Shown here piece by piece: positions 44,702-47,401 of a DNA stretch of 64,000 nt (positions are counted from its first letter, which is position 1; each line of letters begins with the position of its first letter). This DNA comes from Candidatus Woesearchaeota archaeon (lineage in GTDB: Archaea > Nanobdellota > Nanobdellia > Woesearchaeales > DSVV01). The stretch is from NCBI GenBank assembly GCA_018657385.1, contig JABHXF010000034.1, positions 8,081 through 72,080 on the forward strand, given 5' to 3'. Position numbers and translations under genes: made by a program. Below the pieces are notes generated by a model that saw only the letters and a program-made list of their open reading frames with translations, was not told where the DNA came from and did not search any database.

Positions 44702-47401
44702 TTGTACAAAAATAAAAAAATAGTAACTATAATTCCTGCAAGAGGTGGCAGTAAAAGATTGCCAAGGAAAAACATATTACCATTAGCTGGAAAACCATTA
44801 ATTGGCCATAGTATTGAAAGTTCTTTAAAAAATAGTTATATAGATAAAACAATAGTATCTACGGATAATTCTGAAATTGCTGAGATAAGTAGTAAGTATG
44901 GTGCAGAAGTTATAATGAGACCTGAAGAAATTGCTACTGACACTTCCCCGCCAATAGAAGCATACAAACATGTATTATCAAAACTTGAGCAAGAAGGTTA
45001 TTTAGCAGACATAATTATTGTTTTGCAACCAACAAATCCATTAAGAACTAATGAAGAGCTTAACAAAGCAATAGAAATGATTATAGATAATGAAGCAGGA
45101 ATTGTGATTTCTGTAAATCAAAATAAAATTAGCCATAAATGGCTCTTAAAAATTGATAATAGTAGTAAAGAAAACATGAATAAAACTAACTTAATCTTTA
45201 ATGAAGAAGAAGGTATTAGAACACAAGATCAAGAAAAATCATATGAAGTAAATGGAAATATTTTTGGTTATAGTAGAGAAAGAATTCTGAAAGGAGATAT
45301 TTATGATTATAATAATAATTGCGTTGCATTAATATCTAATAAAAAAGTTACAATTGATATTGATGATAAAGAGGATTTTGAGTTTGCTGAATTAATATTT
45401 GAAAAATTAAATGAAAATAAAATAGATCAAACTAAAGAAGATCAAATTAGAAAAGAACATGTAGAGATAGGTGAAAAAATGACAGATAATAAAATAATTG
45501 ATAATAATAATAATAATAATAATAATAATAATAATGAAATTAGAATAGATACAATAACTGGAAAAAAAGTTATTGGGGAAAATCAACCTATTTTTATAAT
45601 TGCGGAAGCTGGTGTTAATCATAATGGTGATTTTGAACTTGCAAAGAAGTTAATTGATGCTGCAAAATATGCAGGAGCTGATGCAGTAAAATTTCAAACT
45701 GCAAATGCAGAAGAAGTTGTTTCCAAAGGAGTTGAGATGGCTAATTATCAAAAAGATAATTTAGGAAGTAATGAATCACAATTAGAAATGATTAAAAAAA
45801 TTGTTTTACCTTATGATGCATATCCAAAATTAAAAAGATATTGTGATGAAATAGGAATTTTATTCTTATCTGCACCACATTCAATTGAAGCTGTTGATTT
45901 TCTAGATCCATTAATGCCTTTATACAAAGTTCCTTCCCCAGATGTAAATAATTATCTAATGTTAGAAAAAGTTGCAGAGAAAGGAAAACCAATAATATTA
46001 TCTGTAGGAATGTCAAATATGGCAGATGTTAAAGAAGCAATTAGTGTAATTAAAAATAAAGGCAATGAAAAAATAATAATATTACAATGTACAACTGATT
46101 ATCCATGTGAATATGAAAATGTTAATTTAAGGGCAATGTTATCAATAAAAGAAGAATGTGGTGTAATGGTTGGTTACTCAGATCATACTATTGGTCTAGA
46201 TGCAGTTAAAGTTGCAGCTAGTTTAGGGGCGATAGTATTAGAAAAACACTTCACATTAGATAAAAACTTACCAGGACCTGATCATAAAGCATCAATGACT
46301 CCTGATGAACTAAAAGAATTAATTGAAACTATTAAGAGAAAAGAATATTATGTAGATGAAAAAAATAAAGAAGTTCTACTTGGTAATTCAATTAAAGAGC
46401 CATGTGAAAAAGAAGTAGAAATTGCTAAAGTTGTTAAAAAAAGTATTGTTGCAAAACAAGCAATAGCTAAAGGAACAACAATTACTGAAGAAATGATAGC
46501 TTTGAAAAGACCTAGTACTGGAATTTCTCCAAAATTATTTAGAAAAGTTATTGGAAAAACTGCTAATGATGATATTCAAGAAGATGAACTTTTTAGTTGG
46601 GAAAAATTAAGCAGTGAAACATTAAGTTTTGATACAAATGTAAGTATAAATACAAAAATTAACACTAATACTAAAAATGAAGAAATTAGTGAAAAAACAA
46701 ATACCAACAATGAAAAAATAAATACTGAACATGAAGAAAAAAATACTAACGCAAGGAAAGTATTAGTAATTGCAGCACATCCAGATGATGAAGTATTAGG
46801 TGTAGGCGGAGTATTATTAAAACATAAAGAAGCAGGAGATGAAATAAACATTTGTATTGTTACAAAAGGATATGTTCCTGAATGGGAAGAATCTGATATA
46901 AGAACAAAAGTAGAAGAAGGAGAAAAAATTGATCAATTCTTATGTGTAAAAAAAAGATTTAATTGTGGATTTCCAACTGCAAAGCTTAATGCAATCCCAC
47001 ATGGTGAATTTAATAAAAAAATTCAAGAAGTGATTGATGAAGTTAATCCTGACTTAATATATACACATTATGAAGAAGACATCCATAAAGATCACAGAGT
47101 TATATTTAATGGTGTCATGGTTGCAACAAGACCTATAAAAGATAAAAAAATAGATGTTTTGTGTTTTGAAACTGTTTCTTCATCAGAATGGAACAACCAT
47201 CACTTCTCTCCAAACCATTATGTTAACATTACAAATCAGATTGACAAAAAAATAGAATTAGTTTCACTTTACAAATCAGAATTAAAAGAGTTCCCACATC
47301 CAAGAAGCAGAGATGGATTAAAAACTTTAGCAAGAAAAAGAGGAATGGACATATGCATACCATATGCAGAAGCATTTAAGATTGTGAGGAGCTTTAGTTA
47401 A
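44702..47401 (+). CDS. trifunctional fusion of a CMP-nonulosonate synthetase (NeuA-like), a nonulosonate synthase (NeuB-like with SAF domain) and a PIG-L/LmbE-family de-N-acetylase
   Basis: NeuA segment IIPARGGSKRLPRKNILPLAGKPLIGHSIE. NeuB segment PIFIIAEAGVNHNGDFELAKKLIDAAKYAGADAVKFQT...SDHT...KHFTLD with an SAF domain. PIG-L segment RKVLVIAAHPDDEVLGVGG...HKDH. The domains are joined by poly-N linkers and N/T-rich linkers. Confidence 0.75.
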   Translation: MYKNKKIVTIIPARGGSKRLPRKNILPLAGKPLIGHSIESSLKNSYIDKTIVSTDNSEIAEISSKYGAEVIMRPEEIATDTSPPIEAYKHVLSKLEQEGYLADIIIVLQPTNPLRTNEELNKAIEMIIDNEAGIVISVNQNKISHKWLLKIDNSSKENMNKTNLIFNEEEGIRTQDQEKSYEVNGNIFGYSRERILKGDIYDYNNNCVALISNKKVTIDIDDKEDFEFAELIFEKLNENKIDQTKEDQIRKEHVEIGEKMTDNKIIDNNNNNNNNNNNEIRIDTITGKKVIGENQPIFIIAEAGVNHNGDFELAKKLIDAAKYAGADAVKFQTANAEEVVSKGVEMANYQKDNLGSNESQLEMIKKIVLPYDAYPKLKRYCDEIGILFLSAPHSIEAVDFLDPLMPLYKVPSPDVNNYLMLEKVAEKGKPIILSVGMSNMADVKEAISVIKNKGNEKIIILQCTTDYPCEYENVNLRAMLSIKEECGVMVGYSDHTIGLDAVKVAASLGAIVLEKHFTLDKNLPGPDHKASMTPDELKELIETIKRKEYYVDEKNKEVLLGNSIKEPCEKEVEIAKVVKKSIVAKQAIAKGTTITEEMIALKRPSTGISPKLFRKVIGKTANDDIQEDELFSWEKLSSETLSFDTNVSINTKINTNTKNEEISEKTNTNNEKINTEHEEKNTNARKVLVIAAHPDDEVLGVGGVLLKHKEAGDEINICIVTKGYVPEWEESDIRTKVEEGEKIDQFLCVKKRFNCGFPTAKLNAIPHGEFNKKIQEVIDEVNPDLIYTHYEEDIHKDHRVIFNGVMVATRPIKDKKIDVLCFETVSSSEWNNHHFSPNHYVNITNQIDKKIELVSLYKSELKEFPHPRSRDGLKTLARKRGMDICIPYAEAFKIVRSFS

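Follow-up and report, generated by a model that had tools for sequence, protein, structure and literature searches.

A NeuA-NeuB-PIG-L fusion protein in a woesearchaeotal Leg-type gene cluster, with a candidate deacetylase for N-acyl exchange in nonulosonic-acid biosynthesis

The locus and its open reading frame

The window, by which we mean the whole stretch of DNA analysed (64,000 nucleotides), comes from a member of the Woesearchaeota, a tiny-celled DPANN archaeon. The ORF listing placed one uninterrupted open reading frame (ORF) of 899 amino acids with a TTG start at 44702..47401 on the forward strand, and the same start was chosen by the NCBI, ENA and JGI gene callers. The NCBI record of the protein, MBT4540738.1, is labelled only "N-acetylneuraminate synthase". 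Pfam searches revealed CTP_transf_3 (NeuA/LegF), NeuB, SAF and PIG-L in this order along the polypeptide, all above the gathering cut-offs, and this HMM check bore out the trifunctional content claimed by an earlier sequence-only reading of the same DNA.

Table 1. Coordinates of the fusion gene, its parts and its neighbours in the window
Feature	Position	Strand	Basis
Lrp/AsnC-family regulator, directly upstream	44135..44617	+	Pfam HTH_AsnC-type and AsnC_trans_reg
GGTGA, Shine-Dalgarno-like	44693..44697	+	Read in sequence; 4 nt 5' of TTG (44702-44704)
NeuA/LegF-type CMP-nonulosonate synthetase domain, residues 1-235	44702..45406	+	Pfam CTP_transf_3
Linker 1, residues 236-296	45407..45589	+	11 consecutive Asn and low pLDDT
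NeuB/LegI-type nonulosonate synthase: TIM barrel 297-554 and SAF 581-636	45590..46609	+	Pfam, NCBIfam
Linker 2, residues 637-685	46610..46756	+	Asn/Thr/Lys/Glu-rich, low-complexity
PIG-L/LmbE-type zinc de-N-acetylase domain, residues 686-899 and stop	46757..47401	+	Pfam PIG-L; predicted activity
Fmt/ArnA-type formyltransferase, 30 Asn and NeuC/LegG hydrolysing 2-epimerase, 696 aa	47461..49551	+	Formyl_trans_N, Formyl_trans_C, Epimerase_2
5-formyl-THF cyclo-ligase and FolD fusion	49548..51101	+	Pfam and NCBIfam FolD models
NeuD/PglD/LegH-like N-acyltransferase	51067..51801	+	Pfam PglD_N; TIGR03570 148 bits, below cut-off 160.8
DegT-family aminotransferase, LegC/PglE-like	58024..59175	+	Pfam DegT_DnrJ_EryC1, 352 bits
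CBS and SDR NDP-sugar dehydratase/epimerase, LegB-like candidate	61940..63328	+	Pfam CBS, Epimerase, GDP_Man_Dehyd

Homologues for all six Leg steps were found in the window, namely LegG, LegI and LegF together with candidates for LegB, LegC and LegH. The hydrolysing 2-epimerase of this Leg-type cluster is of the NeuC type and not PseG; its domain in the 696-aa fusion scored 450 bits with TIGR03568. The fusion of 5-formyl-THF cyclo-ligase with FolD presumably supplies N10-formyl-THF, and the NeuD-like gene is directly followed by a cassette of ACP, AMP-ligase, LuxE, LuxC and Fe-ADH genes. The cluster of a relative, L006, is likewise headed by an AsnC regulator, and the CBS and SDR architecture also occurs at its end. 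Scans of the window for tRNAs and Rfam families found nothing, and the counts of sigma-70 promoters and terminators equalled those in shuffles, as expected for an AT-rich archaeon.

The claimed continuity of the frame was upheld. No interruption was found at the AAT repeat in the first linker, and the identical 899-aa protein was encoded by an independent MEGAHIT assembly (ENA ERZ27245994, hereafter L001). Between this assembly and the window there were 11 SNPs, none of them within the fusion gene, and a 63-nt indel in the AAT repeat of the neighbouring gene. The poly-Asn stretch of the formyltransferase-NeuC fusion is 21 residues shorter in L001. The same 899-aa protein was also present on a JGI/IMG contig, so other assemblies, where the sequence-only reading had suggested looking, do contain the fusion. 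At the local base composition, the probability of a stop is 0.097 per codon, and the other two forward frames of the ORF contain 94 and 158 stops. It might be supposed that two or three genes only seem joined here, because the locus is a pseudogene or because AT-rich DNA of low complexity was wrongly sequenced or assembled, as both linkers are of low complexity, the length of the AAT repeat in the neighbouring gene differs among assemblies, and short reads underlie all of the assemblies seen. We consider such an artefact highly improbable, because the product is the same in independent assemblies despite the SNPs and the indel that separate them elsewhere, the AAT run (33 nt) is shorter than one sequencing read, linkers of 61 and 52 codons would be open by chance only with P = 0.002 and P = 0.005, a separate PIG-L would have no start codon, and every catalytic residue is intact.

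Domains and linkers of the protein

The CTP_transf_3 match of the NeuA domain covered residues 9-231 (102.4 bits, against a Pfam gathering cut-off of 22.6), and the best solved relative of this domain was 6ifd, a CMP-N-acetylneuraminate synthetase (130 bits). Its residues R14, K23, D219 and D221 align with R12, K21, D209 and D211 of the N. meningitidis enzyme and represent the P-loop Arg/Lys and the DxD metal-binding pair; pLDDT in this domain was mostly >90 in the full-length AF2 model. In the second domain, Pfam NeuB matched residues 317-554 (292.5 bits) and SAF matched residues 581-636 (40.8 bits), the SAF region being of low confidence in the monomer model. Residues S493, H495, E514, H516 and R603 align with S213, H215, E234, H236 and R314 of N. 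meningitidis NeuB, in which His215 and His236 are the metal ligands and Arg314 belongs to the SAF domain.

The type of the NeuB domain was assigned by equivalog HMM cut-offs. TIGR03569 (NeuB_NnaB) passed narrowly, with 408 bits against a cut-off of 399.65, while PseI (TIGR03586) reached 274.7 bits, below its cut-off of 340.25, and PseF (TIGR03584), tried for the NeuA domain, reached 146.4 bits, below 205.7. The sugar is probably of the Leg rather than the Pse type, other non-Pse types being inseparable from Leg by sequence, because TIGR03569 and the NeuC model passed, PseI and PseF failed, and DegT, PglD-like and SDR genes are present in the window.

Both linkers had been described as poly-Asn. 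This holds for linker 1, in which an AAT repeat (nt 45503-45535) encodes 11 Asn at residues 268-278, and not for linker 2 (approximately residues 637-685), which has no poly-Asn run and no counterpart in relatives. In the full-length model, pLDDT was <50 at residues 241-251 and 260-285 of linker 1 and 25-37 in linker 2. Linker 1 contains an in-frame ATG at residue 260 with GGTGA before it. Residues 640-692 contain no in-frame ATG, GTG or TTG, so the PIG-L domain could not be translated alone.

Pfam PIG-L (PF02585) matched residues 688-808 with 86.6 bits (gathering cut-off 28.2), and the domain carries AHPDDE at 692-697 and HKDH at 795-798. The His/Asp zinc ligands on which the sequence-only reading had staked its deacetylase are present, and H693, D695, D696 and H798 were invariant among 16 PIG-L orthologues; most orthologues have Asn in place of the first His of HxDH. 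Free-standing orthologues of ~215 aa showed up to 64% identity. With a pLDDT of 91 and Foldseek TM scores of 0.77-0.79 to BC1534, BshB, TT1542 and diacetylchitobiose deacetylase (2ixd, 6ull, 1uan, 8bgn), the AF2 model of the domain confirmed the LmbE Rossmann-like fold. The domain shares its fold, its His/Asp/His metal site and its Asp general base with BshB, MshB, diacetylchitobiose deacetylase, BC1534 and TT1542, but it is only 20-25% identical to these known deacetylases and lies in another genomic context. The BshB1 and BshB2 models (TIGR04001, TIGR04000) gave 67 and 38.6 bits, below their cut-offs of 182.5 and 195.25. Among solved structures, those of diacetylchitobiose deacetylases and BshB-like proteins come nearest, and on this ground the domain might have a role unrelated to nonulosonates, such as chitobiose or GlcNAc-lipid deacetylation, and have been fused by positional accident. 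We give hardly any credence to this, because the identity to those structures is so low, the BshB equivalog cut-offs were missed, and orthologues with 55-64% identity sit in Leg-type clusters beside a formyltransferase.

The full-length AF2 model resembled beads on a string, with linkers of pLDDT <50, a pTM of 0.46 and no confident inter-domain packing, and thus says nothing about channelling. All three sets of catalytic residues are intact in the alignments, and the ORF, judged from its sequence, encodes one genuine polypeptide in which three predicted enzymes are joined by disordered Asn-rich linkers.

Unfused relatives and distribution

In related DPANN genomes, neuA/neuB, PIG-L, formyltransferase, neuC, 5-formyl-THF cyclo-ligase and folD are separate but adjacent and follow this order. 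In L002, a NeuA-NeuB gene is followed by a separate PIG-L gene through a stop/start overlap (ATGA), and then by the formyltransferase, NeuC, cyclo-ligase and FolD genes; L004 and L006 show the same gene order with every gene separate. The formyltransferase and NeuC, and likewise the cyclo-ligase and FolD, are thus separate genes in all three relatives. BLASTP against L002 matched the fusion in two parts, residues 7-634 to NeuA-NeuB and residues 687-899 to the free-standing PIG-L. Three adjacent gene pairs are fused via Asn-rich linkers in the woesearchaeotal genome, and formyltransferase-NeuC fusions were found in two lineages. The trifunctional protein probably arose when a stop codon was lost between adjacent, overlapping operon genes, and the formyltransferase-NeuC and cyclo-ligase-FolD fusions of the same genome would have arisen by the same route. 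Given the adjacency of the genes and the ATGA overlap in the relatives, stop-codon loss would most simply account for the fusion, and the fusion does not in itself place the deacetylation step right behind NeuB or NeuA. A secondary point of interest is that an AT-rich DPANN genome serially fuses operon neighbours via poly-Asn linkers. Two further loci, one with NeuA-NeuB, NeuC and a hexapeptide acyltransferase (L088) and one with a NeuA-NeuB-NeuC fusion (L087), contain no PIG-L, formyltransferase or folate genes; PIG-L and the formyltransferase are an optional cassette inside Leg-type clusters.

Fusions of NeuA with NeuB are common, with hundreds in metagenomes. The order NeuA then NeuB, which had been called the reverse of the pathway order, is real and not special: it is the common one among bifunctional proteins, of which hundreds have it, and NeuB then NeuA is found as well. 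NeuA-NeuB proteins of CPR, DPANN and other uncultured prokaryotes have the same order as the N-terminal two-thirds of the fusion, with 35-47% identity over ~70% of the query, but these uncharacterised metagenomic proteins end after SAF (~580 aa) and none was listed with PIG-L. Among the best 120 matches of a full-length search of 5.8 billion clusters, PF02585 occurred only in the query's own cluster, and the best 150 matches of 1.84 billion representatives (down to 262 bits) included no NeuB and PIG-L protein. The representatives did not include the query, and a search with the PIG-L domain of P0001 failed to retrieve P0001 itself, so fusions can hide in these searches. Other partners of NeuB were NeuC, radical SAM, methyltransferase, GNAT and NeuA in reverse order, and ten long candidates for NeuB with PIG-L were in fact NeuB joined to NeuA, NeuC, radical SAM, methyltransferase or GNAT. 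Long stop-to-stop ORFs around PIG-L in 80 GTDB loci were high-GC artefacts, apart from one extension (L045), which looked lysozyme-like by eye only. NeuA-NeuB-PIG-L is, as far as these sequence matches go, a new domain combination that is found in one lineage among the matches listed, while the underlying cassette is widespread in unfused form.

The PIG-L subfamily comprises >2,500 proteins at E ≤ 1e-5 and >513 genomic loci. At the 80 GTDB loci, which belong to other bacteria and archaea, NeuA, NeuB or NeuC was present at 30 and DegT at 41, and no nonulosonate gene lay within 7 kb at 50. PIG-L lay directly after neuB in all DPANN and haloarchaeal loci examined. The haloarchaeon Salinirubellus has PIG-L overlapping with the end of neuB, and a short way downstream its opposite strand encodes two formyltransferases, each of a different type. 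The sequence-only reading had taken the appended deacetylase as a sign of N-acyl remodelling, and this idea gains strong support from the conserved synteny, with PIG-L between neuB and the formyltransferase in DPANN, after neuB near formyltransferases in the haloarchaeon, and ≤300 nt from a formyltransferase at 38 of the 80 loci.

Possible roles of the deacetylase and known systems

N-formylated and free-amine legionaminic and pseudaminic acids occur in archaeal S-layers, a haloarchaeal virus and an anammox bacterium. A 5-N-formyl group presupposes the loss of the GlcNAc-derived acetyl, and, to our knowledge, the enzyme that removes the original N-acetyl of such sugars has never been characterised. 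The fusion, together with the conserved order of neuB, PIG-L, formyltransferase and neuC, would assign a large anonymous PIG-L subfamily to this missing step, as Rosetta-stone evidence of fusion and synteny may do, and the fusion protein is a ready construct with which to test the assignment.

The explanation that we favour, at a little above an even chance, is that the PIG-L domain serves as the deacetylating half of an exchange of acetyl for formyl that leads to a 5-N-formyl legionaminic-type sugar, and that it was fused by stop-codon loss. From what was established directly (ORF integrity, domain identity, catalytic residues, fold, synteny and distribution), we infer the substrate, order of steps and product as follows. 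The NeuB domain would condense a 2,4-diamino-2,4,6-trideoxy-mannose derivative with PEP to a legionaminic-acid-type nonulosonate, which the NeuA domain would activate with CTP. The PIG-L domain would strip the GlcNAc-derived N-acetyl at hexose C2, the future N5 of the nonulosonate, and the Fmt/ArnA-type formyltransferase of the next gene would formylate the freed amine, the cyclo-ligase-FolD fusion providing N10-formyl-THF. As the end product we predict a CMP-5-N-formyl-7-N-acyl-legionaminic-type sugar. Deacetylation and formylation would preferably take place on the NDP-hexose, before NeuC. This stage is favoured because the gene order PIG-L, formyltransferase, NeuC parallels the order of steps, because formyltransferase-NeuC fusions occur in two lineages, and because most of the PIG-L loci surveyed (50/80) have no nonulosonate genes nearby. 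It is also favoured by known substrates: the characterised PIG-L enzymes that we know of all deacetylate 2-acetamido sugars (pyranosides) and none is known to act on nonulosonates, and known sugar N-formyltransferases use NDP-amino sugars.

Alternatively, PIG-L may be joined to NeuA and NeuB because it acts late, on the free or CMP-linked legionaminic acid made by the same polypeptide, and yields a nonulosonate whose 5-amino group is free. We find this doubtful, while taking it seriously, and are just as hesitant about its sequel, in which the amine is either left free (zwitterionic, as for Kuenenia) or later receives an acyl or formyl group and the fusion serves consecutive catalysis or channelling. 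Late action would suit a PIG-L domain that is joined to the last two pathway enzymes, is not separately translatable, and always directly follows neuB in DPANN and haloarchaeal loci. In addition, the preprint cited below reports free-amine CMP-nonulosonates in Kuenenia, where the Leg cluster includes a deacetylase, and these sugars are compatible with either stage of deacetylation. However, adjacency and the ATGA overlap suffice to explain the fusion, which occurs in one lineage only among the matches listed, the unfused state being the rule. NeuC, to which the partner formyltransferase is fused, works earlier in the pathway, many orthologues lie at loci without visible nonulosonate genes, and the substrates of known PIG-L enzymes also speak against late action. 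If it were true, the domain, acting in cis, would be the first enzyme identified as a de-N-acetylase of a sialic-acid-like sugar, the fusion would be a self-contained 'make, activate, edit' machine, and free-amine nonulosonates like those of Kuenenia would be accounted for.

The formyltransferase, for its part, could target the 4-amino group (the future N7), with N5 then left free or re-acylated by the NeuD-like enzyme. It is improbable, in our view, that formyl replaces acetyl at this position while PIG-L strips N5 and the NeuD-like enzyme loads an unusual acyl group, and no less improbable that the ACP/AMP-ligase/LuxE/LuxC/Fe-ADH cassette is the source of that acyl. The position of this ACP-based acyl-activation cassette, the action of known sugar N-formyltransferases on 3- or 4-amino NDP-sugars, and the presence of two formyltransferases at some loci would agree with such a scheme. 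Against these points, the sole chemically defined archaeal product is 5-N-formyl and not 7-N-formyl, the ACP/Lux cassette is missing from L002 and L004, which both have PIG-L and the formyltransferase, and the Salinirubellus sugar-N-formyltransferase (PF18216) belongs to a separate class from the PIG-L-associated Fmt/ArnA type.

A precedent for a de-acylating editing domain fused to a CMP-nonulosonate synthetase is NeuA of E. coli K1 and group B Streptococcus, in which the CMP-Neu5Ac synthetase carries a C-terminal sialate O-acetylesterase, an SGNH hydrolase that removes O-acetyl. In contrast, the fused domain here is a PIG-L metalloenzyme, N-acetyl removal is expected, and NeuB lies between the two. 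A literature search combining PIG-L or LmbE with nonulosonic or legionaminic found no paper, and only the SugarBase preprint (2026, 10.64898/2026.04.20.719630) links a deacetylase to such clusters. It reports that Ca. Kuenenia stuttgartiensis has CMP-nonulosonates in which one amine is free and the other formylated, and a Leg cluster with an uncharacterised deacetylase and formyltransferase between leg genes. Kuenenia is a bacterium with separate genes, whereas the fusion is archaeal, and the accessible text of the preprint does not state the family of the Kuenenia deacetylase. 5-N-formyl-legionaminic acid, an established archaeal glycan sugar, is made by Halorubrum sp. PV6, and the cluster was reported to contain legB, legC, legF, legG, a formyltransferase, neuD and legI, with no deacetylase named (Zaretsky et al. 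2018, PMC6137143). The Halorubrum genes are unfused, and that paper identified no deacetylase, whereas in the woesearchaeotal cluster the deacetylase is explicit and fused, and in Salinirubellus, a haloarchaeon related to Halorubrum, PIG-L overlaps the end of neuB.

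Reading frame, domains and catalytic residues

The sequence-only reading had proposed a single polypeptide carrying NeuA, NeuB and PIG-L domains, and both the Pfam matches (see the table) and one uninterrupted frame of 899 codons in the ORF listing confirmed this. The ORF begins with TTG, with GGTGA 4 nt upstream, and the gene callers of three databases made the identical choice of start. At the local base composition, one stop per ~10 codons is expected, and the chance of a linker being open was P = 0.002 for 61 codons and 0.005 for 52 codons; the remaining two forward frames of this region contained 94 and 158 stops. 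No in-frame start codon was found in residues 640-692, so the PIG-L domain can be produced only within the fusion. We also noted that Met260 (window 45479-45481) is an in-frame ATG with GGTGA upstream at a spacing equal to that of the true start; translation might also initiate there, which would yield a NeuB-PIG-L product without the NeuA domain. The poly-Asn linkers proposed earlier held for linker 1, whereas linker 2 has no homopolymer run.

Features of the fusion protein, the window and related loci
Source	Feature	Position	Remarks
Fusion protein	CTP_transf_3	residues 9-231	Pfam, above gathering cut-off
Fusion protein	Poly-Asn run in linker 1	residues 268-278; nt 45503-45535	AAT repeat encoding 11 Asn
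Fusion protein	NeuB	residues 317-554	Pfam, above gathering cut-off
Fusion protein	SAF	residues 581-636	Pfam, above gathering cut-off
Fusion protein	Linker 2	~residues 637-685	Asn/Thr/Lys/Glu-rich
Fusion protein	PIG-L	residues 688-808	Pfam, above gathering cut-off
Window	Histidine kinase and response regulator	27996-30628 (-)	
Window	DUF4956, 913-aa CotH-kinase-like and VTC-domain trio	37248-41470	
Window	470-aa GT-B protein	42386-43798	
Window	Fusion ORF	44702-47401 (+)	
Window	Fmt-NeuC/LegG fusion	47461-49551	30-Asn run between parts
Window	5-formyl-THF cyclo-ligase + FolD fusion	49548-51101	Separate genes in L002, L004, L006; SHMT added in L006
Window	Phosphopantetheinyl transferase, ACP, AMP-dependent ligase, Fe-alcohol dehydrogenase, LuxE-like acyl-protein synthetase, LuxC-like acyl-CoA reductase	51881-57894	
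L002 (Woesearchaeota)	NeuA-NeuB, PIG-L, Fmt, NeuC, 5-FTHF cyclo-ligase, FolD, hexapeptide transferase, DegT, SDR		
L004 (Nanoarchaeota)	NeuB, PIG-L, Fmt, NeuC, hexapeptide transferase, second Fmt, cyclo-ligase, FolD, DegT, SDR		
L006 (Woesearchaeota)	AsnC, Fe-ADH, DegT, NeuA, NeuB, PIG-L, Fmt, NeuC, hexapeptide transferase, cyclo-ligase, SHMT, FolD, ..., DegT, CBS-SDR		
L054 (Salinirubellus litoreus)	NeuB-SAF/PIG-L region	5862-9668	
L045 (Thermodesulfobacteriaceae)	PIG-L orthologue in 398-aa ORF	2939-4132	

The protein exactly matches NCBI MBT4540738.1, labelled 'N-acetylneuraminate synthase [Candidatus Woesearchaeota archaeon]'. The window was 99.95% identical across 22.7 kb to a MEGAHIT contig from ENA (L001, 282 kb). 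The two differ by 11 SNPs and by a 63-nt indel located in the next gene's AAT repeat, which indicated that L001 was assembled independently, from a near-identical population. L001 encodes the identical 899-aa fusion with no SNP within the gene, and a JGI/IMG contig of 225 kb encodes the same protein. The fusion is thus present in other assemblies, and the interrupted frame that had been feared was not encountered. Nor did the second doubt raised earlier, a lack of PIG-L zinc ligands, apply: the AHPDDE (692-697) and HKDH (795-798) motifs are present and matched, by alignment, those at the zinc sites of diacetylchitobiose deacetylase, BC1534 and TT1542, and H693, D695, D696 and H798 were invariant across 16 orthologues. 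Alignment to the N. meningitidis enzymes placed R14, K23, D219 and D221 of the NeuA domain at R12, K21, D209 and D211, and S493, H495, E514 and H516 of the NeuB domain at S213, H215, E234 and H236 of NeuB, with SAF-domain R603 at R314.

The AlphaFold model of the PIG-L domain (pLDDT 91) gave TM scores of 0.77-0.79 to BC1534, BshB, TT1542 and Dac. The full-length model (pTM 0.46) contained three confident domains, with linkers at pLDDT 25-45 and a SAF region that modelled poorly as a monomer; it gives a beads-on-a-string picture and is uninformative on domain packing.

Distribution and origin of the architecture

The order of NeuA before NeuB, regarded earlier as a notable reversal, proved to be ordinary, since CPR, DPANN and other uncultured lineages encode an abundance of NeuA-NeuB-SAF proteins (~580 aa; 35-47% identity to the fusion). 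Other NeuB fusion partners were NeuA in reverse order, NeuC, radical-SAM, methyltransferase and GNAT, and all three of NeuA, NeuB and NeuC are joined, in that order, in a 982-aa protein from Nanoarchaeota. Of the 120 best-scoring out of 5.8 billion clusters, the fusion's own was the only one with a PIG-L domain on a NeuA-NeuB protein, and none of the 150 best-scoring out of 1.84 billion representatives had one; both searches can miss fusions, because the representative list did not include the query itself and a search with its own PIG-L domain failed to recover it. The fusion is a new domain architecture, in one lineage so far.

The PIG-L domain is part of a large and well-conserved family, whose members are free-standing proteins of ~215 aa, up to 64% identical to it. 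One orthologue, in L045, lies in a longer ORF whose C-terminal ~150 aa appeared lysozyme-like by eye. In related DPANN genomes (L002, L004 and L006), the gene order is that of the window, with PIG-L immediately 3' of neuB, and in L002 the neuAB stop overlaps the PIG-L start at ATGA. The alignment to the two L002 proteins covers residues 7-634 and 687-899 of the fusion, and the low-complexity insert between residues 634 and 687 is unique to the window protein in this comparison. Two further neighbouring pairs are fused in the window, namely Fmt-NeuC and cyclo-ligase-FolD. Given the shared gene order, the ATGA overlap and these two fusions, the simplest history is that overlapping neighbours lost the stop codons between them, in a genome rich in AT and tolerant of Asn-rich spacers. 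L001 has 21 fewer residues in the poly-Asn run of the Fmt-NeuC fusion, which makes the repeat in this gene polymorphic in length; a second Fmt-NeuC fusion (P0381, 631 aa) showed 47% identity. Asn-run insertion appears to be common throughout the genome of this archaeon (GC = 26%), because runs of 6-7 residues also occur in the histidine kinase and response regulator.

Predicted pathway and stage of deacetylation

The NeuB domain passed the NeuB_NnaB equivalog (408 bits; cut-off 399.65) and failed PseI (275 bits; cut-off 340), the NeuA domain fell below the PseF cut-off, and the C-terminal half of the next gene passed the NeuC hydrolysing-epimerase model (450 bits). Further genes of the window code for an acyltransferase of the PglD/NeuD-like kind, an aminotransferase of the DegT family and a CBS-SDR enzyme of dehydratase type, and neither PseG nor PseH was found in it. 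Together, these enzymes are predicted to cover the six steps of a Leg-type pathway, whose stereochemistry lies beyond sequence proof. The SDR, DegT and NeuD-like enzymes would convert NDP-GlcNAc to NDP-2-acetamido-4-acylamido-2,4,6-trideoxyhexose, from which the PIG-L domain would remove the 2-N-acetyl; the Fmt domain would formylate the freed amine with N10-formyl-THF supplied by the cyclo-ligase-FolD fusion, apparently a module dedicated to one-carbon supply in this DPANN archaeon. The NeuC domain would then hydrolyse and epimerise the NDP-sugar, and the NeuB and NeuA domains would add PEP and CMP in turn. Just upstream of the sugar cluster, the DUF4956, CotH-kinase-like and VTC-domain trio is kept in L001. 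The GT-B protein, with weak Epimerase_2, Capsule_synth (KpsS/KpsC-like) and Glyphos_transf matches, is a candidate CMP-nonulosonate transferase; the L006 cluster ends with a 477-aa Capsule_synth protein.

We surveyed 80 species-representative genomes with a PIG-L orthologue (32-51% identity), among them Campylobacter volucris, Nitrosopumilus and the haloarchaeon Salinirubellus. An Fmt-type formyltransferase lay within 300 nt of PIG-L in 38 of the 80, NeuA, NeuB or NeuC within 7 kb in 30, and DegT was present in 41. This conserved PIG-L/Fmt synteny supports the earlier view of the deacetylase as a sign of N-acyl remodelling, which was essentially right. PIG-L, Fmt and folate enzymes behave as an optional cassette between neuB and neuC, because a cluster with NeuA-NeuB, NeuC and hexapeptide transferase (L088) and the Nanoarchaeota NeuA-NeuB-NeuC cluster (L087) both lack all of them.

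Deacetylation and formylation are placed at the NDP-hexose stage by inference from the types of substrate known for PIG-L enzymes and for sugar formyltransferases, the gene order PIG-L, Fmt, NeuC, the recurrence of Fmt-NeuC fusions in two lineages and the many PIG-L/Fmt pairs in loci without visible nonulosonate genes. Late action of PIG-L, on Leg or CMP-Leg, is a less likely but serious alternative, and it would be the more novel result if true. It is also a possibility that formylation occurs at N7 and that N5 is re-acylated from the adjacent ACP/AMP-ligase/LuxE/LuxC cassette, which probably makes an unusual N-acyl donor; this cassette lies between the NeuD-like acyltransferase and DegT and is absent from L002 and L004.

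Comparison with known formylated nonulosonates

The acetyl at position 5 of legionaminic acid derives from GlcNAc, and a deacetylase is therefore required before a formyl can take its place. In Salinirubellus litoreus, the PIG-L gene overlaps the NeuB-SAF end, and two formyltransferases lie beside it on the opposite strand, one of the PF18216 sugar-N-formyltransferase type and one of the Fmt/ArnA type that adjoins PIG-L in the window. This arrangement makes HrrPV6_1052, in the cluster of Halorubrum PV6, a candidate for the missing deacetylase. The fusion was built from neighbouring genes of a widespread, putative acetyl-to-formyl editing cassette of Leg-type pathways, and its chief worth is as Rosetta-stone evidence and a practical construct for assigning the deacetylase step. 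In Kuenenia, a 2026 preprint reports CMP-nonulosonates in which one amine is free and the other formylated, and points out a deacetylase and a formyltransferase in the Leg cluster (10.64898/2026.04.20.719630). In Halorubrum sp. PV6, the S-layer and HRPV-1 glycan ends in 5-N-formyl-legionaminic acid, and the cluster includes legG, a formyltransferase, neuD and legI (PMC6137143). No deacetylase is named in that paper. The findings from Kuenenia and Halorubrum both agree with the proposed cassette, and the fusion is not a new kind of system.
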